Part shown: positions 21,582 through 64,000 of the stretch, piece by piece
Layout: each line of letters begins with the position of its first letter
Position numbering within the stretch: position 1 is the stretch's first letter
NCBI GenBank assembly: GCA_019057385.1
Contig: JAHQJS010000003.1
Coordinates: 32,001 to 96,000, forward strand
Length of the DNA: 64,000 bases
From: Candidatus Borrarchaeum weybense
GTDB taxonomy: Archaea > Asgardarchaeota > Sifarchaeia > Borrarchaeales > Borrarchaeaceae
Direction of reading: 5' to 3'
The notes under the pieces: model-generated
Told to the model about the DNA's origin: nothing
Seen by the model: the letters and a program-made list of their open reading frames with translations, nothing else
The model's database searches: none
Program-made: the position numbers and the translations under genes

Positions 21582-21815
21582 GTCAACTACCCCACCCTAA
21601 AGGGTAGAGGCTTGTGAAAATCAAGCCTCTTAGTTGATTAGAGGGCTTCCGTTTATTAGGGGAAGCAGCAGTTGTTTAGGTTATGACACCCTGGGGTGTT
21701 CCACTAGCCCCTTGCTCTGTCGTCCGCTGATTATAAGTCCTGAGGGGTAGGGACGGTGTCACGGGCATGAAAGCCTTTACAACAGCCTCGAAGTGGACCA
21801 ACCTACTTTAAAGCA
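21582..21815 (+). ncRNA. IscB omegaRNA (HEARO-like) scaffold; guide expected just upstream (~21560-21581)
   Basis: GC-rich structured leader starting GTCAACTACCCCACCCTAAAGGG directly upstream of iscB; TATA-like TTTATAAAA at 21530; 3' end approximate. Confidence 0.75.
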
Positions 21816-27546: not shown

Positions 27547-28800
27547 TTACCCCTCAGGCGGTTTTTTCTTCTCGTGCATTCTCTTTCCCTTGCCTTTCTT
27601 TTTCTTCTTCTTTTTCTTTTTCTTTTTTGCTTTTACTTCTTTTCTTACAGGTGGAGAGGGATATTTTTTCTCAATCTCTTCAATACGCTTCATAATTTCG
27701 ATAACTAATTCGTCTCCAATAAACTCGCCTGCGTAAGCATCTACTCTTGCTGCTATCGTTAGCTTTCCAGCTATCGCTCTTGCTATTTTACCTCGCAACC
27801 ACCACTTAGCATTGTGAATCTCAGGTTTCTGAAATAATACACCATGTTTCGGAGGTTTACTCCCAGTTTTAATGGCTCTAAATAGTGCTTTCTCCGCACC
27901 TAGGACTTGAACTGTGCTAGCGGGAAGACGTGCTAGTTCAAGAAGACCTCCTGCAATGCTAATAATTCGAGCCCCTAGTAGTGCGCCGACTATTGCAGTC
28001 ACATTTGGCGCAACTTCACGCATTGTAGTTTCAATATAGTGCTCACTTTCTTTCCTGACTTTGTATAAGTCATCTGTAATTCGTGCAAACTTAACAAGCG
28101 ATTCTAGATCTGCTTCATCCATTTCTGCTCCAATTGAGTTTTTAACATAACCCTCTATCTCTTTTGCCTTGTCTAAAGGTACGCCTGTTATTCTTTGAAT
28201 TTCCGAAACTAAAAAGCGATCGCGTGGACCCAATGCTCCTACTAATCCAACATATATTTCGTGATTTTCGACTTTATCCAATTCTGGAAAATGAAGACCA
28301 TACCATTCTCGGATTCGAGTTGAGAATAAATTTAACGTTTGATCGATATCATCTATAGCTTTAATCGCTTGTGCAACCATTTTATCTCTTCGTTCAGAGG
28401 CACGCTTTATCTTCTTTTGTGATTGCAGCAAACCTACTGATTGTAATATAAACTGGAAGTTATTGATCCCTTCTTCTTTTGCTATACTGAAGGACTGTTC
28501 ACGAAAATTTTTGAATATTGAATTTCCTTTTTCAGTTAACGTTTGAATATCAAATTGCTCCTGAATATTCCTTGCTAGTTTTTCGTCTTCAAGGACGATT
28601 TCTTGAACCTCTTTTTGCTTTAGTACACCTAGAACATCTTTTAATTCGTCAATAAGTTGTCCTGATTGAAGAAGTTCAATTTTTTCTACAATTTTCTCTG
28701 GCGTACTTGGAAAAAGCGCACGATAAATAATTTCGCTATTCTCATCGACCCCATAGATTCCTGCAACATTCTCCACAATATATGCACGTATTGATGTCAT
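27547..28800 (-). CDS. nop5: Nop5/Nop56 box C/D RNP protein
   Basis: EWYGLHFPEL, STVQVLGAEKALF, PKHG, GKIAR, Lys-rich tail. Confidence 0.95.
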   Translation of the reverse strand: MTSIRAYIVENVAGIYGVDENSEIIYRALFPSTPEKIVEKIELLQSGQLIDELKDVLGVLKQKEVQEIVLEDEKLARNIQEQFDIQTLTEKGNSIFKNFREQSFSIAKEEGINNFQFILQSVGLLQSQKKIKRASERRDKMVAQAIKAIDDIDQTLNLFSTRIREWYGLHFPELDKVENHEIYVGLVGALGPRDRFLVSEIQRITGVPLDKAKEIEGYVKNSIGAEMDEADLESLVKFARITDDLYKVRKESEHYIETTMREVAPNVTAIVGALLGARIISIAGGLLELARLPASTVQVLGAEKALFRAIKTGSKPPKHGVLFQKPEIHNAKWWLRGKIARAIAGKLTIAARVDAYAGEFIGDELVIEIMKRIEEIEKKYPSPPVRKEVKAKKKKKKKKKKKGKGKRMHEKKKPPEG

Positions 28801-29089
28801 TCAGATCCCATCTTCTATTATTAAGTTTTTAAGAACTTAATAGAATATCACGTATCTTTTGTATCTACTGGATTTTATTTCTCACGAGAAAATAAGGGTT
28901 TTTTCACCATTTTAATGTTTTTCCAAAAACTTATTTATCCTTTTAGAAAGCAATACTTGTTTATAATTCGAGAGAATAAATTATCTTATTCTAAATTATA
29001 TTTCACAATAGTGGGAGCGTAAAATATTTCTAGAAATTTGATTTCAAGAAATGTGTAGATACTCAAATGCGTTAAGAAGGAACTAATAA

Positions 29090-30445
29090 ATGATAGTCAC
29101 AGATTTGGTAAATTTAGCAAAAAAATCGGTCAAAATATTTAACGAACATGTTATTAAGGAAAACCTAGAACCACCAATGAGAGCCTATATTAGAGAATTT
29201 CCTACTAAATTTGAATTAACCGAATCAGGACACAGTTGTGGATTTTCAGGAGAAATAGTTCATAAACCGGACTGGTCTATGATAATATTTAATTTCATAG
29301 ACAAAATCAAAAAAAAGCCAGCCTTCGCACAACTTGCTCAATCAATTGCAGCAAGATATAAAAAGAACATCCAAGATCTGGCCGAAGGGTGCAATGAGTT
29401 AGCACAAGTCACTTTTTGGTTGGAGCGATTTATTCAGAAGATAATTTATAATAATTTAGATAAAGAACTTTCAGAAAATCAAATTATAGAATATGCTGTA
29501 TTGTTTAATTCTGATCTTGAATTAAATCCTTCAGAATATAATTACACTTTCTATTTAAACGGTATTTTCTTAGAATGTGAATCGGTAAAGATTAATGATA
29601 ACGTAATCATTAGAAAACCGCAAAAAGAGGATTTTGAATATACTAGAGATATTTTCTTCGATATTCCAAGACATCATCATATTAGAATTCCTTCATCAAT
29701 ACTGGAAATGAATATGATCGCTAAAGATAACAAAGAATGTAGAGCCTACGCCAATAGAATACTTAACGCATTAAGGCTATATAAACTGGGTTCAATTTAC
29801 CCTATTAATCAGATTGAAACTAGAAAGTCTATCATTTGGGGAGGTTCTCAAATAAGTTGGAATGGAAATTATACTTCCATCAAAAATTATACTGTAAATG
29901 AAACTGAACTTAAAGATTTTATTGATATTGTTATTGAAATTGAACAGAAATTGAATTTTAACAAAAAAGAAAAGAAAAATTGGGGGCTCCTTATTTCTCT
30001 TGAAAGATACAACTCTGCTCTTCTAGAATCTTTAGATATTGATCGAAAAGTAATGACTACAATTATGGGATTAGAATCTTTATTTTCTCTTGAAAAGGAT
30101 AGGGGCGAAAATGCGTATAAATTGGGCGTTAGAGTTGCGAAGTTACTCGGATTTATGAGACCGGATATTGAAGAAGTAAGAACATTGATAGAAAGTGGGT
30201 ATAAATTCAGAAATGATGTTGTTCACGGTATGTATATTAAACAAAACCAAAGAGAGAAAATGGAAAAAAACCTCCTGAAACTTCTCGACTATCTAAGAAT
30301 GTCTTTAATATTTTTTCTGATAAATCAACAACAAGGAAAAAATAAGTTAGTTGACATAATCGATAAATCACTAATAAGCGACAATTATGGCGAACAACTG
30401 AAAAGATTATTTCAAAACGGTATTATTATCTGTCCAAACATGTAG
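29090..30445 (+). CDS. ApeA/HEPN-like protein (putative RNase, defence cargo)
   Basis: C-terminal GLESLF...YKFRNDVVHG (RxxxxH); AT-rich island. Confidence 0.65.
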   Translation: MIVTDLVNLAKKSVKIFNEHVIKENLEPPMRAYIREFPTKFELTESGHSCGFSGEIVHKPDWSMIIFNFIDKIKKKPAFAQLAQSIAARYKKNIQDLAEGCNELAQVTFWLERFIQKIIYNNLDKELSENQIIEYAVLFNSDLELNPSEYNYTFYLNGIFLECESVKINDNVIIRKPQKEDFEYTRDIFFDIPRHHHIRIPSSILEMNMIAKDNKECRAYANRILNALRLYKLGSIYPINQIETRKSIIWGGSQISWNGNYTSIKNYTVNETELKDFIDIVIEIEQKLNFNKKEKKNWGLLISLERYNSALLESLDIDRKVMTTIMGLESLFSLEKDRGENAYKLGVRVAKLLGFMRPDIEEVRTLIESGYKFRNDVVHGMYIKQNQREKMEKNLLKLLDYLRMSLIFFLINQQQGKNKLVDIIDKSLISDNYGEQLKRLFQNGIIICPNM

Positions 30446-30550
30446 AAATCTCTAATAGATGAGTTTGAGTTATCTTAAATTTCAAACGACTCAGTTGAGC
30501 AAAAATAGATAATAATTAGTATAGATGTTTAAAATAAGTTAGTGGTATGA

Positions 30551-31612
30551 ATGGTATCTAAGATTAATCACTTTACCGATGCAGGAGAACTGTTTAGAAG
30601 ATTGGATACAATAGAAAGATTCCCAAATGTGCCTATTAAAACGGTATTGTTCATCTATGATTTCAGGTACAAATTATTAGACATCTTAGATAGAATAACA
30701 CCCCAGGAATATCAAAAATCGTCTTATAAAATTAAATTTGAAAACGATGATGTTGTCTTGTTAGATGTGAAGATCGTAAAAGATTTAGATATAATTTCAA
30801 GTGATAGGAGAAAAGTATTTCTTATAATAGATAAGAATAAGCCATTTTGTATTTTGATTACAAATTCTGAGGGAAATTATTTCAAAAAAGTATTATCATT
30901 TTTCAATAAACATTATCCGCTATTATCAAGAATTTTTTTACGCTCAAATGAAATAAAAGACTTATTAAACTATCTAGAGGAAAAAGAAGAAGCGAAGTTG
31001 ACCGTTTTAAGTTATGTTGTTAAAAGATACTATGTAAGGCCAGAGACAAGAATTGCCTATGAGAAAATCAGTTTTAGAGAAGTCTTTGATAAGGCATCAG
31101 ATGATTTTCTTTGGGTAGATAGTATTTATTTAGCAATTGAAAAAAGATCCAAGAGTAAAATTAGGATAAATAGACGAGGAGTCATATCATATTATAGGAA
31201 TTTAGATTATTCAAATATTCATTTGATTCTTATCTCTCAAATTCTTATTAAATACTCAAAAATATATACAAGTATCCTAATGGAAAGATCGAGAAGTCTT
31301 GAAAATTTAGAACCCCGACCAGTAAGGTTTTTTATAAACGAAGACGTCTTCAATTCATCAGAAGATATCGATAGGTTCTTAGAAGCTTTGCATAAATATT
31401 TGCTTAATTGGGGATATTCAACATTATTTAAAGAAAGAAACTACCTTTATCTCATACTTCACGATTATCAAACAGGTTCAAGTTACGATATTTTGATCAG
31501 TTCTCCTTATGAAATATTTGTTACTCCACAAACTCAAGTTACGAGCATTTCTTTTGGCGCTCTAGTCAACTTTCTTGTTGATAATTATGATGGAGTTGTT
31601 GAAAATGTCTAA
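30551..31612 (+). CDS. Hypothetical protein, coupled to the next gene
   Basis: 353-aa ORF in island. Confidence 0.7.
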   Translation: MVSKINHFTDAGELFRRLDTIERFPNVPIKTVLFIYDFRYKLLDILDRITPQEYQKSSYKIKFENDDVVLLDVKIVKDLDIISSDRRKVFLIIDKNKPFCILITNSEGNYFKKVLSFFNKHYPLLSRIFLRSNEIKDLLNYLEEKEEAKLTVLSYVVKRYYVRPETRIAYEKISFREVFDKASDDFLWVDSIYLAIEKRSKSKIRINRRGVISYYRNLDYSNIHLILISQILIKYSKIYTSILMERSRSLENLEPRPVRFFINEDVFNSSEDIDRFLEALHKYLLNWGYSTLFKERNYLYLILHDYQTGSSYDILISSPYEIFVTPQTQVTSISFGALVNFLVDNYDGVVENV

Positions 31613-32705
31613 AGATAATAATGAAGAATTAATGAGATTTAGAAAAATAGATATCAGCAACTATATCAAAGCGCTAAAATCTCTGATATGTTTAAGGAAA
31701 ATGATTATAAACGAGTTATCAGGTGAATTCTATTTTGGTAGTAAGTTAAATTACAAAAATAAACAAGGAGATCCTCAAACACCTGACTTTATTACAAAAC
31801 TAAGCAATACTGCATGGATAGGAGAGCTTAAAAGATCGCTTCCTGAACCTAAAAATTTTACTTCTGAAGAAGAATATGTCGAGAAAATTGTAGAAAAACT
31901 TATCGAACAGTTGCAAAAATATGATGAATCTTTTAAGGAATTAGATTCTTATCAGCATGATATTATACTAATGACTCCATCATTAGCAACAGATGCAATA
32001 GGCGTTTTGAAGTTTAAGTATCTAGAAAAAGAGAATGTCAATAATCTGTTTAAACACAATTTTGCACTTCTTCTTTATACACTTGAATCAGGAGCAAATA
32101 ATACCGAGTTCATATACATTAAATTGGATTATGGAACTATTACTGATAAGAAGGCTACAGATATTTTAAAAGTTGGTTACAAAAAGGTTTTAGGAGAATT
32201 AAAAGAAGATTTAGCGAAATTTAAAATATATGAAGAAAGTAAACAAACACCTTTTGAATATGTAATGGTTCTGCTTTGGACACAGATATTCCCTGAGATA
32301 ATCAAAAAAAGTCGTGTAGAGAAGATAATCGAATGGAAAGACAGGAAGGAACACATATTCGAAGTAAAATTAGATGAGTTAATTGAATATCTACATAAAA
32401 TGTATACATTGCCATCTTTGAGTGCAACTGACAAAAAGCAATTTACAACCAAGATAATACAGAAAGCCATGACTATGTTTTCAAAGGTTAAAATTAAAAG
32501 TGAAAGAACTAGAAAACTCGAACCTTTGGTTACGTATGGTGAAAAAGACGGTTCTATGGTATTTAGAGTGGTTTATAAAAAACTTCGGGAGAAGAAAGAA
32601 TTGGACTTCATTCTTAAGTCGATTTATTTGGAACAAGGTGAAATTGAAGACAAGGAAACTCAAAGAGAATTAATTAATTATCCACGATTAGATACATGGT
32701 TTTAA
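31605..32705 (+). CDS. Putative PD-(D/E)xK nuclease-domain protein
   Basis: TPDF...WIGELKRS...QLQKYD; start taken at ATG 31605. Confidence 0.55.
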   Translation: MSKDNNEELMRFRKIDISNYIKALKSLICLRKMIINELSGEFYFGSKLNYKNKQGDPQTPDFITKLSNTAWIGELKRSLPEPKNFTSEEEYVEKIVEKLIEQLQKYDESFKELDSYQHDIILMTPSLATDAIGVLKFKYLEKENVNNLFKHNFALLLYTLESGANNTEFIYIKLDYGTITDKKATDILKVGYKKVLGELKEDLAKFKIYEESKQTPFEYVMVLLWTQIFPEIIKKSRVEKIIEWKDRKEHIFEVKLDELIEYLHKMYTLPSLSATDKKQFTTKIIQKAMTMFSKVKIKSERTRKLEPLVTYGEKDGSMVFRVVYKKLREKKELDFILKSIYLEQGEIEDKETQRELINYPRLDTWF

Positions 32706-32936
32706 AATTTTAAATAAAAAGTAGTTATAAATTGATTCGCTGTTCTGTTAGTTATAGCGAGAGAGTTCTTTTTCCATAATTTTCTATACTAAAAACCGCT
32801 TAGAACAATTTTTTCAAAGAAAGGAAGTCAACTATACACCCATTTTATTAGAGGAGATGGGAAAACCTAATTTTTTTGATGGGTTTATAAATCTAGTTAT
32901 AGAATGTATAAATGAGATTATATCGAGGTTGGAAAT

Positions 32937-33758
32937 ATGAGAAAAACAAAAAAACTGATGATGATTCATGCCTATACTCCCATTGCAAAACCGATCAACA
33001 CCTCTGTTCAAAAAAATTCAACCATGCTGTTGTTAGGTCAAATTCCCTACGAAAACGGGTCAAAAATATTCACTACTAAGCTTTATTATATCAAAGGATT
33101 ACGTGGAATGCTAAGACATGCCTGTATGAGCCTTGCTCAGGATTGTAGTATCGAGGTGTGTCATACCAGCGAAAAAACTGAACTCAAAGACGGTACAAAG
33201 GTGACTCCCTCAGGGTTTCATCCACTGGGTGAATGTGAACCTCCATGCATCCTCAAAAGAATTTTTGGTACATTTCGCGAGGAGTCCTCAATATCTGTCT
33301 TGTCAGATCCTATAGCTTCTATTAAGCACAAAGAATTTACCACTGAAGTTCCTGTGCAAAAGGTACATATCGCTAGCGAATATAGAATAGCGAAATCGTT
33401 CACGGGTATACCTATTCAGGACTTCAAGGAATCGTATTTCTCAGGGTATTTTAGTTTCTGTATTGATGTAACTGAATTAACTGACTATGAAATCAAGTTT
33501 CTCATGGAATCTCTACTCTACATTGAAACACTTGGTGCTGGTAAGCGTTCGGGTTATGGACGTATCAAAATTATTAGTTTCGAGTTTCAGAAGGTTGAAA
33601 TTACCAGAAAGATCGACCGCGAAAATGGAAGTTATAAAGTTGTTGAGAATGAGTCGATAACGCCCTTAGAACTCGATGATATCGAGAGTTGGAGGGATTC
33701 AATACCTTCATGGACACAAGGCACGCAAGATGGTATGCTACCTGTTCTTAACGAGTAG
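32937..33758 (+). CDS. cas7: Divergent Cas7-like RAMP (locus A)
   Basis: IKGLRGMLRH, Cys cluster CH...CEPPC, IFG, G-rich loop LGAGKRSGYGRI; close paralog of 61174..61983. Confidence 0.8.
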   Translation: MRKTKKLMMIHAYTPIAKPINTSVQKNSTMLLLGQIPYENGSKIFTTKLYYIKGLRGMLRHACMSLAQDCSIEVCHTSEKTELKDGTKVTPSGFHPLGECEPPCILKRIFGTFREESSISVLSDPIASIKHKEFTTEVPVQKVHIASEYRIAKSFTGIPIQDFKESYFSGYFSFCIDVTELTDYEIKFLMESLLYIETLGAGKRSGYGRIKIISFEFQKVEITRKIDRENGSYKVVENESITPLELDDIESWRDSIPSWTQGTQDGMLPVLNE

Positions 33759-33932
33759 CACGTTCTTGTGCATGAGACTGCTCATCTATAAAGGTCTGAC
33801 GCCTTTGATGAGGAGGGATGACTCGCAGGGGACGATAAATGTCGTAAACATGTTTATGAGTTTACTAAGTCTATCGACTAACCTTGCAAAGCCTCTCTTA
33901 AGCGATGGCAAGTTAAACGCTTGTCATCGCTT
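33731..33932 (+). ncRNA. Putative guide RNA 1: scaffold 33731-33843, guide ~33844-33889, hairpin 33900-33932
   Basis: Scaffold shared with 59913-60028 and 61025-61139; 33865-33889 matches pyrD 34041-34065 (24/25). Confidence 0.7.
33900..33932 (+). terminator. Hairpin after guide 1
   Basis: AAGCGATGGCAAG/CTTGTCATCGCTT stem (one G-U), followed by T-rich tract. Confidence 0.55.
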
Positions 33933-34037
33933 CCATTTTATCCTATTGTTTCTTCTATACTTCTTCAGAAAAAGTTAAGAAGTCTAATATAAAAGTAAGA
34001 GTTAAGATAAACGAATGAAAGTGAAGTTTAGATTTTT

Positions 34038-34982
34038 ATGCTAACTCTATCGACTAACCTTGCAACATTACAACTTAAGAATCCTGTTATGTTAGCTGCT
34101 GGAGTTCTCGGTATTTCGGGACCAGTACTTAAACGGGTAGCGAATGCCGGTGCGGGTGCGGTTGTCACAAAATCTATCGGTCCTGAGCCCAGAGAAGGTT
34201 ACAATAATCCAACAGTCGTTCCTTTAAATGAATTTAGTTGTTTGAATGCTGTTGGGCTTTCAAACCCTGGGTATTTAGAGTTTTCCAAAGAAATAATTTT
34301 GGCAAAACAAGAAAACGTTCCAATAATTGTTAGTATATTTGGCGCAGATATTGATGAATTTTGTACAATTGCGAAGAAAATGGAAAAGAGTGGTGCTGAT
34401 GCACTTGAACTTAACCTTTCATGTCCTCATGGAGGAAAATATGGTGCATCTATCGGACAGGATCCACAATTATCAGGTGAAATTGTATACGCCGTAAAAA
34501 ATACCGTGCAGATCCCTGTTTTTATTAAACTCACACCAAACGTGACTGATCTGATTCCTATTGCAAAAAGTGCTGAAAATAATGGTGCCGATGCTATTAC
34601 TGCAATCAACACAGTACGCGCTATGTGCATAGACATTGAAACTGGGCAGCCCTTATTATCAAACGCGTTTGGAGGGCTTTCTGGGCCTGCAATAAAACCA
34701 ATCGCAATCAAACATATTTATGATCTCTATAAAGAAGTAGGGATCCCTCTTATCGGTGTGGGTGGTATTGTTTCTTGGGAAGATGCAATAGAATTCTTTC
34801 TTGCTGGAGCTACTGCAATTCAAGTAGGGACTGGGCTTCTGCGGACATCATTCCTAGACATGTTTAATGAATTAACCGAAGGAATTCTAAGTTATCTCAG
34901 AAGAAAAGGCTATACTCGTTTAGAAGAAATCATTGGACTTACTCATAGACTTAAATCTTATAGGGGATCTTTACACGAGTAA
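34038..34982 (+). CDS. pyrD: Dihydroorotate dehydrogenase B catalytic subunit
   Basis: KNPVMLAAG, LNAVGLSNPG, ELNLSCPH, KLTPN, GGLSGPAIKP. Confidence 0.95.
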   Translation: MLTLSTNLATLQLKNPVMLAAGVLGISGPVLKRVANAGAGAVVTKSIGPEPREGYNNPTVVPLNEFSCLNAVGLSNPGYLEFSKEIILAKQENVPIIVSIFGADIDEFCTIAKKMEKSGADALELNLSCPHGGKYGASIGQDPQLSGEIVYAVKNTVQIPVFIKLTPNVTDLIPIAKSAENNGADAITAINTVRAMCIDIETGQPLLSNAFGGLSGPAIKPIAIKHIYDLYKEVGIPLIGVGGIVSWEDAIEFFLAGATAIQVGTGLLRTSFLDMFNELTEGILSYLRRKGYTRLEEIIGLTHRLKSYRGSLHE

Positions 34983-58872: not shown

Positions 58873-58995
58873 TATGAATTAAATCTTATCGTTAGTTCTT
58901 TCATCAATATAAGATAACTTAGTTTGATTCTTACCGTTCCTTTCATAATAGACATCTATTACAGCGAATAGTGTCTATCCACCCACGATAAGAAC

Positions 58996-59266
58996 ATGAG
59001 TGGAGGGCCCGCTAGGACGGTTAAGCGGGATACCTACCGCCATATAGGGTGCAGGCCTTGCGTGAACGAAACGATGATTTATTATCAGCGTTCCCGCAGA
59101 ATCGACGGCGTACGGGAGTGCTGGGCTGAAGTCCGTGAAGTGGTCCCGGGGCGAATGCTTAAACCTCCGGGTGCCTCATCTTACCATCAATTCTCACTTA
59201 TATACTGGAGGACCTGCTTTATAAACACCACGCCTCACGCGTTCACTGTGGAACCCCTTGCCCGCG
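58996..59266. ncRNA. Unidentified GC-rich structured intergenic RNA candidate
   Basis: GC-rich stretch in AT-rich DNA with several hairpins. Confidence 0.35.
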
Positions 59267-59304
59267 AAAGAATCGTCTATATTTGTCTATAAAATAAATA
59301 ACTG

Positions 59305-59595
59305 TTAATCACCCTCTTGTAACTTTTGTTTGATCACAAAAACTCGTATTTTTTCCTCTGCAATTATAAGTGTATCATTGATGGATTTAATTACAGAATG
59401 AGGAATTAAAATTGTTCCTTTCTCATCGCGCGGAAATTTTTCAATATCTGGATGTTTAGTAGGCTTCACACACACCGCTAATAGGTGGCCATCTCGCGAA
59501 TTAATTATGAAATCAACTACCTTTCCCATAGCAGAACCTTTTTCATCAGTTACAGAAATACCAACTAAGTCCCGGATATCGATGATTTCCGACAT
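59305..59595 (-). CDS. PRC-barrel domain protein
   Basis: DLVGISVTDEKGSAMGKVVDF...ILIPHSVIKSINDTLII. Confidence 0.85.
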   Translation of the reverse strand: MSEIIDIRDLVGISVTDEKGSAMGKVVDFIINSRDGHLLAVCVKPTKHPDIEKFPRDEKGTILIPHSVIKSINDTLIIAEEKIRVFVIKQKLQEGD

Positions 59596-59846
59596 TTTTC
59601 ATCCCATCAGACCTTGCATGAGTCGGTCTATGTTAAATCAATATTTTTTGCTATTAATATCATCTGCTTCGAGTTATAAATTAGTCAAGTCATATTGACA
59701 GAACCTTTTCAAAAAGCAAAAATGAGAGTAGAATTGGAAAATTCAAAATTCGATTCAATAAATCTCGAATGAAAAGTGAAAACTAAAGAACGCTGTGCAA
59801 TTATCTTCGTTTAAATCATACAAAAGTCTATCATAATGCAGGAAAT

Positions 59847-60028
59847 AGGAGGGAATAATCCCTCCTTATCTAATATTTACAGGAATGCCGATTAAGTCGC
59901 GGATATTTTTTTGACATTTTTCGTCCCCTGCGAGTCATTCATTCCCAACAAGTGAGGCGTCGGACCTCTAATTTGGTTCAGTCTCATGCACAAGAACGTG
60001 TCCCCCGTGATATACGAAGAACATTCCG
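59847..60028 (-). ncRNA. Putative guide RNA 3: scaffold 60028-59913, guide ~59912-59875, hairpin 59866-59847
   Basis: Scaffold copy; 59906-59877 matches PRC-barrel gene 59579-59550 (25/30); perfect AGGAGGGA/TCCCTCCT stem. Confidence 0.7.
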
Positions 60029-60061
60029 CCTTGTAACTCATTAAACCTCTTGAAAAGAGTC

Positions 60062-60069
60062 TATATAAA
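60062..60069 (-). promoter_or_regulatory. TATA box for guide RNA 3
   Basis: TTTATATA ~34 nt upstream of the scaffold, just after the cas5-HD stop. Confidence 0.5.
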
Positions 60070-60091
60070 CACCGCGATTCAAAACAAAGAT

Positions 60092-60919
60092 TCATTCTTG
60101 CCATGTATACAAACCACTCTTCAAGTCATCAAGATAGAGATTTACCATAAGGAGTAGGTGATTTTTTAAAGATGAAAAGCCAAATTTTAGCGCTTCGCTG
60201 ATCTTATCAAACGCTTGACATTTTCGAATATAAGTATAAAGAGCATAAGGGGAATATTGACGCCTTTCTATCTCTATTTTTAATACATCGAAATCAATTT
60301 TTTCTAATTCTGTCACACGATAACGAGAGGACGCTGACCATCTAAATTTTCGAGAAATCATTGCAGATAGTCGGTCATAATGTTGTAATAAATAAAGCCA
60401 AAGAAAATCTTTTTCATCTATATCATAATTGTGATGATTCTTTGCAAGTTTGAAGACATCTTCGTCAGCTATATCAACATCAGTATAAATTTTACTTGGA
60501 TGTCGATCAGTGCCTACAAAATCATGCAGGAGCATTGCTATAATTAACTTTTCCTGCATATCTGAGAGTTTAGGAAGTTTCTTACGAATCTTAATTCTTC
60601 TTGTAGTATAGAGAGGCTTTTTCTTGAGTTTTTTGAGAGAAGTCCAAAAGATTCGTCCCATCCCCTCACATGTATAACTTCCAACACTATCAATAGCAAG
60701 TGCTTCTTCAAGTTTATGTTCTGAAACGATAAACTCAATATTACCAAACCACGCCCTAAAGGTCATTGGCGCACGTCTTTGTCCTACCGTTAATTTTCCG
60801 AATACCCTGGGACGACCTTTTATGGTCATCGCTCCAACGTCGGTAACTCCAAAATGTCTACGCTTTGAAACAATAGGAGTTTTTGTATAACCAATTAATT
60901 TAAAGTATTTCTGTGGCAT
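60092..60919 (-). CDS. Cas5-like RAMP fused to permuted HD nuclease domain
   Basis: N-terminal YFKLIGYTKTP and G-loop GSYTCEGMGRI; LLHD...NHH...YDRLSA...SLKNH. Confidence 0.7.
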   Translation of the reverse strand: MPQKYFKLIGYTKTPIVSKRRHFGVTDVGAMTIKGRPRVFGKLTVGQRRAPMTFRAWFGNIEFIVSEHKLEEALAIDSVGSYTCEGMGRIFWTSLKKLKKKPLYTTRRIKIRKKLPKLSDMQEKLIIAMLLHDFVGTDRHPSKIYTDVDIADEDVFKLAKNHHNYDIDEKDFLWLYLLQHYDRLSAMISRKFRWSASSRYRVTELEKIDFDVLKIEIERRQYSPYALYTYIRKCQAFDKISEALKFGFSSLKNHLLLMVNLYLDDLKSGLYTWQE

Positions 60920-60944
60920 TTTATTCCCTCTTATAAGATTTTAC

Positions 60945-61139
60945 CTCCTCTTTGAACAAAAGAGAGGAGATATAAACCTTGCCAAAGTAAACACGTTTGC
61001 AACTGTTGTTTGTAAAGTGGGTATGACATTTTTCGTTCCTTGCGAGTCATCCGTCCCCAACAATTGAGGCGTCGGACCTCTAAGCTGGTTCAGTCTCATG
61101 CACAAGAACGTATCACTCACATCAGTAAGTGATAAACCG
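60945..61139 (-). ncRNA. Putative guide RNA 2: scaffold 61139-61025, guide ~61024-60970, hairpin 60969-60945
   Basis: Scaffold copy; 61021-60970 aligns to cas7 promoter 62071-62019 (7 mismatches, 1 gap). Confidence 0.72.
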
Positions 61140-61173
61140 TAATGAGATGAGAAAAAAAGTTGAAATAAATGTG

Positions 61174-61983
61174 TCACACAGCCACCTTCTCATCCTGTTT
61201 ACTCATAGTATTCAAAGAAGTTCTCCAATCCTCGATTTTACTTAGAGAAAGCGGAATTTCAGTGGTTTCTTCTATAATTTTATAGTTTCCTTCGCTATCC
61301 TCTTCGACTCTTCGAAAAGTCTCAACCTTCTGAAGAGCAATATTAAGGATTTTGACGCAACCATATCCACTTGACCGTCCTGCCCCAAGAATTTCTACGT
61401 AGAGCATTGCTTCTATAAGAAACTTGATTTCAACATCAGTTAGATTAGTGACATCAATTTGAAAGGAAAAAAATCCACTGAAATAACTCTCACGAAAGTC
61501 TTGGATGGGAGTACCATCATAGGCAAGCGCTATTCTGTTTTCACTAGAGATGTGGACATTTTGAACTGGCACTATTGTTATAAAATCTTTGTGTTTAATC
61601 GAGGCAATAGGGTCTGCTGCGACAACAATAGAGGACTTTTCACGGAAGGTGCCAAAGATTGTTCTGAGAATACAGGGAGGATCGCATGTACCAAGCGCAT
61701 GAAATCCTTGCGGAAGAACACTTTTACCATCTTTAAGTTCAGTTTTTTCAGAACTATGACATACTTCGATGTTGCAGTCTTGAGCAAGTTCCATACAGGC
61801 ATGTCTTAACATCCCTCGGATACCTTTAATGTAATAAAATTTAGTATTGAACGTTTTTTCTCCATTCACATAAGGAAATTTCCCTAACAAGAGCATGCTA
61901 GAATTTTTCTGAATCGAGGCATTGATAGGCTTTGCTATGGGTGTAAAGGCGTGAACAACTATCTGGTTTTTGATTTTTCTCAT
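61174..61983 (-). CDS. cas7: Divergent Cas7-like RAMP (locus B)
   Basis: IKGIRGMLRH, CH...CDPPC, IFG, LGAGRSSGYGCV. Confidence 0.8.
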   Translation of the reverse strand: MRKIKNQIVVHAFTPIAKPINASIQKNSSMLLLGKFPYVNGEKTFNTKFYYIKGIRGMLRHACMELAQDCNIEVCHSSEKTELKDGKSVLPQGFHALGTCDPPCILRTIFGTFREKSSIVVAADPIASIKHKDFITIVPVQNVHISSENRIALAYDGTPIQDFRESYFSGFFSFQIDVTNLTDVEIKFLIEAMLYVEILGAGRSSGYGCVKILNIALQKVETFRRVEEDSEGNYKIIEETTEIPLSLSKIEDWRTSLNTMSKQDEKVAV

Positions 61984-62017
61984 GTTTCCAACCTCAAATA
62001 TATTTAGTACAAGTACC

Positions 62018-62090
62018 TATATAAACCTTGCTCAAAATAAACACTTTTTCTACTCTTGTTAGTAAAATGGGGTTTAAAATGACTTCCTTT
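62018..62090 (-). promoter_or_regulatory. cas7 promoter (TATA TTTATATA 62025-62018); homologous to 32821-32890; matched by guide 2
   Basis: AAGGAAGTCA...CCCATTTTA...GGTTTATA...GAGGTTGGAAA-n-ATG upstream of both cas7 copies. Confidence 0.65.
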
Positions 62091-62326
62091 TTAGAAATAA
62101 AGTATTTTAAACAGGTTTTATGTGAAAAACCATTGTATGTTTAGAACCTGATTTATAAATCACAATGTAACATTCAATTTACATCATCATTTTTTTAAAA
62201 GAATAGTTGTTTGATTTAACAAAATTAAGTTTCTTCGGGAATTCAAAAAGAGTACATTGATGGTATCAACTAAACTAAAAATCGTTCGAAAAAAATAATT
62301 GTTCCATTGATGGTTGCTAATAAAAA

Positions 62327-64000
62327 TTAGGGCAATAGATCTTTTACTGTAACTGGAGGACCCTTTTTCTGTGGTTTATAGATGCCTTCTAAATGTTGGA
62401 ATCTTTCAAACATTAAGTGGAGAGTTTCCTTATCTGGAGCGTAAATAAAGGGGATGAATCGCTTATTTTCTAGCAAAAAATCCTTGAGTTGTACTGCACA
62501 CTGCCTTAAAGCCTCCATTACTGTCATCTTCTGTTCAAGATAGTATATTTCTTGATTGAGTATATCATCAACTAGTCTCTCAACTTTGTAGTGTCCATTC
62601 CATGTTAGGTGATAGAATTGTTCGTGTTCAAGCGTTTTACGCTTCTTGAAATCAGCTTTTGTAAATTCACCATACAAACATGCTAAAATTAGGGTGAGCC
62701 TGAACAAGGGAATAAACATTTCTCGAAAATCAAAGATAGTGCCTAGAAAGGAGCGTTGGGTTTTTTTAAAGTGCAGTATCAGTTCATCCGGTACCCAAGA
62801 AAATCCTACTTCAGCGAGTGCTTTTCGACAGTAAAGGTTAAGATGACGATAAACAGCATTGAGTGCAGCACTAAAGGGTGTACGTGCTTTTACTTCTCCT
62901 AAAAGGACAACGGTGGAAATATAGCGTTCTAGGGTACGACTAATGATCTCAAAGTAGGTTCCTCTTAGCAAACGTTTAGGGATTTCCCAGGCAACTCCTT
63001 CAACTAAGCCTTCAAACCCACGGAGGTTGTCAATATTACCCCTCCAATAGAGAAAAGTATATGCTACTCGATCCAGCAATTTAGATAAGAGCTCTTGAGC
63101 ATTTTCAGCAGATAACAACCCCTCTTTTTCAACTTGGAGTACTGAATTGGCTAGACCTATATCTTTACTTATTGTCAGAAGCCATGCTAGCAATTTGCCT
63201 CGTTCTGTTCCTCTGATTCGCTGAGCGGCATATTTCAGTTCGTCGGCTACCTGTTGTTTCTTTGGAGTTAGTTTATTTTGTGCAAAGAAACTACCTTTTG
63301 GTGTATTTGCATCAATGAGTTTCTTGCTATATTTCTTACGAATGTATTGCGATATATCGCCACCTTCAATGATGATATTACGGATAGCACCGACTAAATA
63401 CCGTTTTGTTTCTCTTCCGTCTTTTAGTGTATGAACAAATCGTTTTTTTCTAATATCGAGCCTTTCATTACACTTGACACGGATATTTCGTTTTGGTCTT
63501 CTGATATAGACCTTTGTCTTTTTAACTCTCTGAACATAATTCCCGGGCTTACCTATAAGCAGTTCTAAATTTGTTTGCAATACATCACGATAACCCGGTT
63601 TTATTACAAGTTCACCATTAACGGTCAAATGATAACTGGAATTGCATTCAGGACAGACTGTATATTCCATATATGAGGACGGTAATTCCACAATGCCACG
63701 AGGTTTACAGTTTAAACATGTAATGCTGCCATTTGTTTCTTGCAATATTCTTATTTTACGTTTTTTTAACCTTTGAACATTTTCGTGATGTTCGCATGCA
63801 CTCTTCCTTGGTGTGGCGTAAGGATTTCTTGCTCGTTTTCCTACTTGTTTGTTTAATTTGCAGTTTAACACACAAACATGTGCATGTTTCGATCTTCGAC
63901 GGTCCTTTATAGGGTTTATCTGAATGAACTTACAAGATCCACAGGTGAGCCGAAGATGTTCAGGAATACTTGCGTTCACATCAGCTACATAGATTTTGGG
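62327..64000 (-). CDS. cas1: Large divergent Cas1 with N-terminal Zn-finger-like motifs (5' end outside window)
   Basis: LRGFEG, PFSAALNAVYRHL, ALAEVGF...ILH, IFDFREMF follow the Cas1 E/H/D-E catalytic motif order; several CxxC pairs; frame open to window edge. Confidence 0.75.
   Translation of the reverse strand, partial: PKIYVADVNASIPEHLRLTCGSCKFIQINPIKDRRRSKHAHVCVLNCKLNKQVGKRARNPYATPRKSACEHHENVQRLKKRKIRILQETNGSITCLNCKPRGIVELPSSYMEYTVCPECNSSYHLTVNGELVIKPGYRDVLQTNLELLIGKPGNYVQRVKKTKVYIRRPKRNIRVKCNERLDIRKKRFVHTLKDGRETKRYLVGAIRNIIIEGGDISQYIRKKYSKKLIDANTPKGSFFAQNKLTPKKQQVADELKYAAQRIRGTERGKLLAWLLTISKDIGLANSVLQVEKEGLLSAENAQELLSKLLDRVAYTFLYWRGNIDNLRGFEGLVEGVAWEIPKRLLRGTYFEIISRTLERYISTVVLLGEVKARTPFSAALNAVYRHLNLYCRKALAEVGFSWVPDELILHFKKTQRSFLGTIFDFREMFIPLFRLTLILACLYGEFTKADFKKRKTLEHEQFYHLTWNGHYKVERLVDDILNQEIYYLEQKMTVMEALRQCAVQLKDFLLENKRFIPFIYAPDKETLHLMFERFQHLEGIYKPQKKGPPVTVKDLLP

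Follow-up and report, generated by a model that had tools for sequence, protein, structure and literature searches.

The window analysed here is a 64,000-nt stretch of DNA from the Asgard archaeon Candidatus Borrarchaeum weybense (assembly GCA_019057385.1, contig JAHQJS010000003.1, positions 32,001 to 96,000 of the forward strand). It holds three copies of a structured RNA of about 125 nt, here called the scaffold RNA, in two gene cassettes that encode Cas7-like and related RAMP proteins. The RNA copies, scored with a covariance model termed R1, and the genes beside them are, in window positions:

32937..33758 (+): Cas7-like RAMP gene, 273 aa, before RNA copy 1; PF03787 at E 1.3e-6, PADLOC Csm3 at E 1.8e-7, cas7 hidden Markov model (HMM) at 6.7e-161
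33723..33851 (+): RNA copy 1 (scaffold), R1, 119.8 bits
59905..60036 (-): RNA copy 3 (RNA2, the terminal copy of its cassette), 143.9 bits
60092..60919 (-): small RAMP-HD gene, 275 aa, by its motifs in alignment A5
61017..61147 (-): RNA copy 2 (RNA1, after cas7), 132.9 bits
61174..61983 (-): Cas7-like RAMP gene, 269 aa; Pfam RAMPs at E 2.9e-6, PADLOC Csm3 at E 2.3e-8
62327..64000 (-): Cas1-like C-terminal part of a 1327-aa superfamily 2 (SF2) helicase-Cas1 fusion, the gene start lying beyond the window

The RNA family and its RAMP gene neighbours

The original prediction was of a new structured RNA in three copies associated with Cas-like genes. All three were found where they had been placed, far beyond chance, and the covariance model agrees. 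R1 was built from 22 copies of the same genome (alignment A2). In this genome (4.18 Mb, 8 contigs, 37% GC) an nhmmer profile of the three window copies finds about 25 copies, and the covariance model confirms 25. We refer to the own genome as G000 and to the five other genomes of the class as G001 to G005; C denotes a contig and L an extracted stretch or metagenome contig. R1 matches six of six genomes of the class with 3-33 copies each, and at the same sensitivity it has zero matches among 55 other genomes of the phylum. Public contigs matching the RNA are filed under Candidatus Borrarchaeum, Candidatus Sifarchaeum and Promethearchaeota archaeon, which we take to be Asgard archaeal names. The metagenomes gave 58 covariance-model matches on 49 contigs, the contigs having been drawn by the exact core 18-mer. 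Four exact-word matches in unrelated organisms were dropped, as the covariance model confirmed none of them. An exact copy of the 18-nt core word is also present in a contig filed as viral in IMG/VR (IMGVR_UViG_3300014613_000006 = Ga0180007_10000723, 51.5 kb; L177/L142), which has no covariance-model copy at E<=1e-4.

No family of Rfam (release 15) matches the RNA at the gathering threshold, and a search at E<=10 over 59800-61300 gave just chance-level scores of 16-19 bits on other stretches, in line with the predicted novelty. The sole Rfam match in the window is a full-length HEARO / IscB omega RNA at 21582-21802 (+), with 116.8 bits (gathering 83), which is unrelated to the scaffold RNA.

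In Sifarchaeum subterraneum (G005), the assembly of which is 80% complete, 33 copies were counted; most of them are solo units, some 290 nt long, that end on the right at the RNA 3' end. Copies with no adjacent RAMP gene comprise about 30 such solo copies and 4 orphans in G000, and their fold is kept via compensatory changes. The G005 solo units (L055-L074) also have in common a conserved stretch of 160 nt upstream (..TCTACTATAGTTTCGGGTCCTCGTCTCCAACCGCAAGCGGGGAGACTCGTCCCC..), which has a hairpin of its own.

The association with Cas-like genes is borne out in the own genome, where 21 of 25 copies either follow a cas7-like or RAMP-HD gene by at most 100 nt or are part of such a cassette. RAMP genes occur at 11 loci there, and the typical order is a gene for an SF2 helicase-Cas1 fusion (~1330 aa), cas7-like, RNA1, RAMP-HD and RNA2, with 1-3 copies of the RNA per cassette. 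The gene-RNA-gene-RNA order is constant in 8 own-genome cassettes and in the G004 cassettes inspected. Paralogous cassettes are 77-87% identical, and their likeness stops exactly at the RNA2 3' end.

The Cas7-like proteins have an affinity to type III, with PF03787 at about E 1e-6 and PADLOC Csm3 at E 2e-8 to 1e-10 overall. RAMP-HD has an N-terminal glycine-rich EGMG loop followed by invariant H132-D133, H140, H162-H163 and D182 (alignment A5), and weak HD/Cas3_HD leads in Atlas; it has no Pfam match, and a profile search of PDB sequences was empty. An AlphaFold2 model from an 8-sequence alignment had a mean predicted local distance difference test (pLDDT) score of 46, too poor for a fold search. 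The full helicase-Cas1 protein matches Pfam DEAD/Helicase_C, and PADLOC Cas1 hits a split paralogue at E 2.4e-10 and the window fusion weakly. There is no CRISPR array near the cassettes and no cas2-sized gene between the cassette genes, though no profile search for cas2 was made. Makarova et al. reportedly described ARAMP (Asgard RAMP) in 2020 as array-less CRISPR derivatives. With a Cas7-like RAMP of type III affinity, a distinct Cas1, no array and an Asgard host, this gene set is ARAMP, an array-less type III derivative of enigmatic mechanism (PMC8730458, PMC12669027).

Two further loci of contig C5 of the own genome were seen. At G000:C5 80591-82271 there is a more diverged cas7/RAMP-HD pair (HMM E 8e-72 and 3e-52) with no detectable RNA copy, which may be another ARAMP subtype with a different RNA. 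In the C5 cassette (L022 5540-5718, G000:C5 ~119.5-119.7 kb) an RNA, a tail, a hairpin, a promoter and a second RNA lie between cas7 and RAMP-HD, and this extra unit looks like a two-unit array or an RNA1/RNA2-type recombinant.

Fold, strand and transcription unit

The layout described at the outset is present in all three window copies. A conserved single-stranded 5' lead (..CAAGRCGGWAUG) is followed by P1, a 9-10-bp hairpin that differs in sequence per copy, and by the invariant core ACGTTCTTGTGCATGAGAC (as RNA, ACGUUCUUGUGCAUGAGAC). The P3/P4 arm is closed by a GAGGUC-YSAC-GCCUC hairpin, whose loop is the CYGAC noted before, and the 3' block reads GATGAC..GCARGGRACGAWAAAWGTS, with the consensus GRAUGAC(UC/AG)GCAR-GGRACGAWAAAWGUS. 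We describe the fold as P1, P2a/P2b, P3 and P4.

Pairing was evaluated in alignment A3 (73 distinct sequences from six genomes). Standard pairs fill 94.5% of cells, and sliding the 3' partners by 1-3 columns lowers this to 39-57%. Both sides change in 18 of the 25 pairs; the observed values were reached by 0 of 500 shuffles. The compensatory changes postulated from the three copies thus extend to the family. Most covariation is in P1 (9 of 10 pairs), and in P4 the G-C at columns 87/97 becomes A-U in 23 sequences. P3 lies outside the covariance model and was folded copy by copy; it covaries as CCAAU/AUUGG, CCAUC/GAUGG, CUCAUC/GAUGAG, GGGCUAUC/GAUAGUUC and GAACCGUC/GACGGUUU.

The long-range pairing proposed for the GCARGGRACG block is seen as helix P2a (CGUUCUU with GGGRACG), which is paired in 95.5% of cells and nearly invariant, its variation being G-U to A-U or wobble-compatible. 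RNAalifold on A3 gave an alternative, ACGUU with the 5' GRCGG, which we rejected, as the A-to-U changes at column pair 8/52 yield four U-U mismatches. We prefer P2a because the C-to-U and A-to-G changes of its 3' strand all preserve its pairing; neither helix shows strong double changes. Three conserved U-G pairs of P2a would become C-A on the opposite strand, hence the RAMP-sense strand is the functional one, and the sense energy is lower (more stable) than the antisense energy in 100 of 113 copies. These two observations fix the RAMP-sense strand, as the original prediction had favoured. Its K-turn from CUGA and GAUGA is not supported, since CUGA follows GAGA in just 54 of 113 copies and is CGGG, CGAA or CGAG in the Sifarchaeum copies. 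Of the 113 copies, 66 have a K-turn-like internal loop where P3 meets P4, in two opposite orientations: Sifarchaeum copies bulge on the 5' strand, short-P3 copies on the 3' strand.

The multi-copy, dispersed nature of the family, the sharp boundaries of the ~290-nt G005 solo units and the wealth of other MITE-like repeats in the genome (MITE, miniature inverted-repeat transposable element) would suit a selfish repeat of that kind, with hairpins acting in single-stranded DNA at transposition and copies hitch-hiking beside RAMP genes. We find this very unlikely given the fixed gene-RNA-gene-RNA order, the three conserved U-G pairs, which are poor in DNA, and the lack of visible terminal inverted repeats in the units inspected (cassette and G005 solo units). 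Separately, two MITE-like repeats of ~320-380 nt were seen at L021 1934-2315 and 10118-10437 (G000:C3 ~90.9-91.3 and 99.1-99.4 kb; the first is window 58933-59314); they are missing from a sister genome at the same sites and have dozens of copies across the genus.

A TATA-like box some 25-34 nt before the start is the geometry of an archaeal promoter. TATA-like motif matches starting 25-34 nt upstream of the model start number 70, versus 1-7 per other 5-nt bin, and the motif is found at this distance in 43 of 111 copies, versus 13 and 8 in control windows. The box of copy 3 (GGTGTTTATATAG) begins about 44 nt ahead of the model start, and that of copy 2 (ACATTTATTTC) comes after a T7 run downstream of the cas7 stop codon. 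Judged from these motifs, the copies seem to be separate transcription units, each with a TATA-like box about 27 nt upstream, directly after a RAMP gene. The 3' side differs between copies, and the following features were assigned from the sequence:

33900..33932 (+): terminator-like hairpin of copy 1, AAGCGATGGCAAG..CTTGTCATCGCTT, then a T-rich run
59847..59866 (-): terminator-like hairpin of copy 3, AGGAGGGATTATTCCCTCCT, then a pyrimidine-rich run
3' flank of copy 2: promoter and 5' untranslated region (UTR) of RAMP-HD, a near copy of the cas7 upstream region (duplicate 1054 nt upstream, 45/53)

As the copies have their own TATA-like promoter and the terminal copies a terminator-like hairpin, RNA processing may be unneeded, which seems a better lead than the replacement of Cas6 processing first suggested.

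The position of the RNA could also be read as that of a cis element of the RAMP mRNAs, a 3' UTR stabiliser, processing site or next-gene leader that sets RAMP dosage with no role in trans. The RNA comes right after the RAMP stop codon and overlaps at copy 1, where the last 36 nt of the cas7-like open reading frame (ORF) coincide with its 5' part; RNA1 runs straight into the promoter/5'UTR of the next gene, and in several relatives the RNA 3' end lies 0-10 nt before a host-gene ATG. It is difficult to reconcile such a role with an own TATA-like motif at a fixed distance, with the solo and orphan copies that keep the fold away from any RAMP neighbour, or with conservation that stops at the RNA 3' end and gives way to a site-specific stretch, and we consider it unlikely. 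We hold it to be highly probable that this is a genuine, structured RNA belonging to ARAMP.

Inserted cassettes and tails that copy the target

The original prediction concerned the window copies; beyond it are the ~25 copies per genome, the cassettes as mobile insertions and a 3' tail that copies the insertion site. Both window cassettes are insertions, and sister genomes have the empty sites. With G for the tail and G' for the host target copy, the features are:

28790..34040 (+): inserted element 1, 5.25 kb versus 130-143 nt in three sister genomes
33852..33889 (+): G, 38-nt 3' extension of copy 1, a copy of the native pyrD start; 36/38 to G004, 24/25 to 34041-34065
34041..34065 (+): G', host target copy, the first dihydroorotate dehydrogenase codons, just outside the insertion, by homology resumption in sister genomes
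59550..59580 (-): G', host target copy next to the element on its outer side, in the 5'-terminal part of a small host gene, by the tail match
59581..59586 (unstranded): RATGAT, the 6-bp target-site duplication, in its right copy; the left one lies beyond the window at ~66504-66509
59587..64000, on to ~66503 (-): inserted ARAMP cassette (6.9 kb), its flanks contiguous in G004:C28, G002:C29 and G001:C123
59875..59906 (-): G, 32-nt 3' extension of copy 3; it agrees with the empty site of G004 at 31/32 and with its own flank at 23/30

The 6.9-kb cassette, which carries copies 2 and 3, contains helicase-Cas1, cas7, RNA1, RAMP-HD, RNA2, G and a 285-nt tail. It is inserted after about codon 10 of the small host gene, for which its tail provides a new ATG. 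RATGAT is present once in the empty sites of G004, G002 and G001 and twice in G000. The ORFs of at least 150 aa listed for this insert are helicase-Cas1 and the two RAMP genes; no profile search was aimed at Tns proteins. Element 1 sits between aNOP56, an archaeal context for the window, and the dihydroorotate dehydrogenase gene, and homology to G004:C56, G001:C88 and G003:C285 resumes at 34037-34041. It contains ORFs of 451, 353 and 376 aa, the cas7-like gene, the RNA, G and a tail of ~150 nt with a promoter-like TATA and a new ATG for pyrD; helicase-Cas1 and RAMP-HD are both missing from it. The 451-aa protein has a distant ApeA/HEPN lead in Atlas, and Pfam at E<=5 yields only noise for these three ORFs. 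Around element 1 the native start regions of aNOP56 (27547-28800, -) and dihydroorotate dehydrogenase (34038-34982, +) are replaced by the element, with new start codons, and the 117-nt native spacer of the sister genomes is gone.

In four own-genome elements the terminal RNA is followed, 7-16 nt past its end ...AAAWGUS, by a stretch that recurs downstream on the same strand:

Copy 1 tail: match 24/25, at +189 downstream
Copy 3 tail: match 23/30, at +325 downstream
C4:339346 tail: match 27/34, at +520 downstream
C5:119712 tail: match 27/31, at +1729 downstream

These four tails score 17.5-22.5; in 60 random 2.5-kb windows drawn for each of them the score never exceeded 14.5. On the reverse strand the controls peaked at 16.5, a value seen once, and both kinds of control lie below the tail scores apart from repeats. 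With G004:C24 (22/23) and the metagenome contigs L143 (26/32) and L141 (44/49) the pattern is found in seven independent elements. Downstream of every matched tail come a short linker, a hairpin rich in GC and then a run rich in U or pyrimidines. RNAs that are 91% identical, window copy 1 and that of G004:C24, have different tails, each fitting its own site.

At the three loci with a placeable junction the downstream copy lies 0-15 nt from the boundary of sister homology, and at C5 this boundary is at most 5 nt from G'. At C4 the downstream copy is 115 nt into an ftsY-like gene, which has diverged far more ahead of this copy than in its remainder, as though the element had supplied the front part. 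In the host gene at the copy 3 target three amino-acid changes are found where the own flank departs from the tail. The tail has the sense of the host gene, with which it is co-oriented; pairing would hence be possible with the template strand of the DNA but not with the mRNA.

The tails of C4:423754 and C4:1004295 have no match in the five relatives, and in the own genome blastn-short matched the whole set of tails just to paralogues and chance words of 15-17 nt. The C6 tail turned out to be plain host flank. At L044 (G004:C78) and L050 (G001:C156) the RNA ends at the ATG of an acyl-CoA-dehydrogenase-like gene. A second gene of this type, 1.2 kb downstream, opens with a repeat of the first 50 nt of the former, which is either a long form of tail and target or a tandem gene pair.

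We consider one rival of the guide RNA reading set out below as the main one, namely that the repeats of tail and flank are attachment (att) sites or long target-site duplications made by the integration itself, through site-specific recombination at a segment of host origin or a staggered Cas1-type reaction. Cas1-family integrases duplicate their target: casposons by ~14-15 bp, and in CRISPR arrays it is the repeat that is duplicated. The RNA would then be no guide and would serve the element in another way, for instance as a regulator, for stability, or as the end that the integrase recognises. Such duplications fit the small RNA-ending units L088, L134 and L056, with target on both sides, and the variable repeat length of 23-113 nt, better than the guide reading does, and they fit the cassettes worse. 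At the four own-genome loci there is no further target copy in the 11 kb upstream of the RNA. The 6.9-kb insert of copy 3 has the 6-bp duplication around the whole and the extra target inside. At C5 the tail is 1.7 kb inside the cassette, and the RAMP-HD gene separates it from the flank and thus the one target copy from the other. The empty upstream regions and the C5 arrangement together imply that the target copy travels inside the element. Selection on the RNA fold, the strand-specific U-G pairs and the promoter would also be left unexplained, and we therefore hold this rival to be rather improbable, if less so than a cis element or a selfish repeat.

A guide RNA reading and its relatives

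A guide RNA with a long 5' scaffold is the simplest account of the RNA, because it joins the fold, the strand, the promoter, the RAMP linkage, the position at the element end and the site-specific tail. It would act in the manner of an omega RNA or of the homing CRISPR RNA of a CRISPR-associated transposon, here with a class-1-derived effector. Its strongest point is given by two full cassettes, those of copy 3 and C5, in which a target copy is clearly inside the inserted DNA; the second is that near-identical RNAs at different sites have different, site-matching tails. We speculate that the scaffold is the RNA partner of the ARAMP module, that is the Cas7-like protein and small RAMP-HD, usually with the helicase-Cas1 fusion. 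Its parts would be the variable, always paired P1, P2a/P2b closing the core, the kinked P3/P4 arm and the end ...GACGAWAAAWGUS. At a terminal copy transcription would run on for 7-16 nt, then through a 25-38-nt copy of the boundary DNA and into the GC hairpin and U-rich run. The RAMP proteins may bind the scaffold, with the 3' stretch as guide, and this guide would pair with the template DNA strand only, so that the attachment site is marked for integration, homing or retention of the cassette. Helicase-Cas1 is the candidate integrase and the HD domain a candidate nuclease.

Several observations weigh against such a guide. The duplicated stretch varies in length (23, 25-38, 32, 34, 49, 65 and 113 nt), and a tail match is detectable in just ~15-20% of copies. 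RNA1 copies have the RAMP-HD promoter/5'UTR in place of a tail, and in the C6 cassette of the own genome the RNA directly abuts conserved host DNA. The small unit at G004:C24 (L088), of the form T-A-T-B-T, has three target copies (22-29 nt) versus one in the G000 empty site, and L134 (113 nt) and L056 (38 nt) have an additional target copy 722 and 1206 nt before the RNA. G005, in its 80%-complete assembly, has no cas7 and no intact RAMP-HD, only broken RAMP-HD fragments, and the RAMP-HD assignment is by motifs. On balance we judge it about equally probable that the RNA is, or is not, a guide-RNA scaffold through which the RAMP effector would recognise a site or home to it.

A more far-reaching form, which we put forward as a tentative and rather doubtful proposal, is that ARAMP cassettes represent a new type of mobile element that is guided by RNA, with a guided Cas7/RAMP-HD and helicase-Cas1 integrating at the site. 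The target would typically be the first codons of a host gene, to which the cassette tail would give a new promoter and start codon, and the solo RNA units (480-nt G004:C24 and ~290-nt Sifarchaeum) would be non-autonomous riders.

What the present cassettes share with the published ARAMP is a diverged type-III-like Cas7, a distinct Cas1, the lack of an array and the Asgard host; for the second, small (Cas5-like) RAMP with its nuclease domain, RAMP-HD is a putative counterpart by its motifs. They differ in that here an RNA is found in every cassette and the cassettes are insertions. The omega/HEARO RNAs of IscB/TnpB are alike in being long structured scaffolds encoded at the effector gene's 3' end, where the mobile element ends too, with a guide (here a putative one) 3' of the scaffold that corresponds to DNA beside the element, and in having dispersed copies with no ORF. 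However, the present scaffold has no sequence or Rfam relation to them and is missed by the HEARO model, the partners are RAMP proteins of class 1 type and not a RuvC nuclease, and the guide-like stretch of the cassettes is an internal copy, 150-1700 nt from the flank. A scaffold at the element end with a flank-derived stretch would fit the C6 locus and the G005 solo units, where the RNA 3' end is the boundary, and in the cassettes the tail is the internal copy.

CRISPR-associated transposons (CAST; I-F3, I-B, I-D and V-K) use homing (atypical) CRISPR RNAs (crRNAs) (PMC11406308, PMC9881144). They too join a Cas effector module to a guide (here a putative one) near the element end that matches the adjoining chromosomal attachment site. 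Here, in contrast, there is no CRISPR repeat but a scaffold of ~125 nt, the candidate integrase is a helicase-Cas1 fusion and not Tn7 proteins (no search for tns genes was made), and the target abuts the insertion point, whereas the CAST target is ~50-65 bp away. The bridge (seek) RNAs of IS110/IS1111 are likewise structured RNAs at the end of a mobile element, and they set the integration target by base pairing, as the scaffold RNA may do; they use internal loops for target and donor and have a DEDD/serine recombinase as partner, whereas here the variable part is the 3' tail and the variable P1 is fully paired.

A type III crRNA, with its 8-nt 5' tag and spacer, resembles the present RNA in that the guide-like part is mostly 25-38 nt and the partners resemble Csm3/Cas7. 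The 3' block GGGGACGAGAAA of the scaffold also seems to resemble the end of a type III-A repeat (..GGGGACGAGAAC). The differences are a conserved 5' structure of 125 nt instead of 8 nt, and one unit per promoter with no array, no Cas6 and no Cas10. The units are not a CRISPR array, as they are ~125-130 nt long and 1.1 kb apart with genes between, versus repeats of ~24-40 nt at regular spacing. The one canonical CRISPR array of the genome (G000:C4 148700-152300) has a 37-nt repeat ATTTCAATCCTTATTACTTAAGGAATTCTTTTGCAAC, the other strand ending ATTGAAAT; a link to this repeat was discarded, as it is unrelated to the scaffold RNA.

The protein module is thus known, and the RNA family is in neither Rfam nor the ARAMP reviews (PMC8730458, PMC12669027). 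The reviews mention no RNA, and among the papers searched none connects ARAMP with one; a repeat may be mentioned in the original 2020 description of ARAMP. In the current CRISPR classification ARAMP and its haloarchaeal cousin HRAMP are classed as array-less type III derivatives, and the terminal RNA, if the guide reading is true, is the guide RNA that ARAMP was thought to lack. A promoter-driven scaffold RNA in every cassette with an insertion-site tail would make the mechanism of ARAMP directly testable, and a compact DNA-recognition module of two proteins and one RNA would interest tool builders. If true, it would also be a second, independent union of Cas effectors with mobility, via a Cas1-family integrase, in the lineage of archaea closest to eukaryotes.

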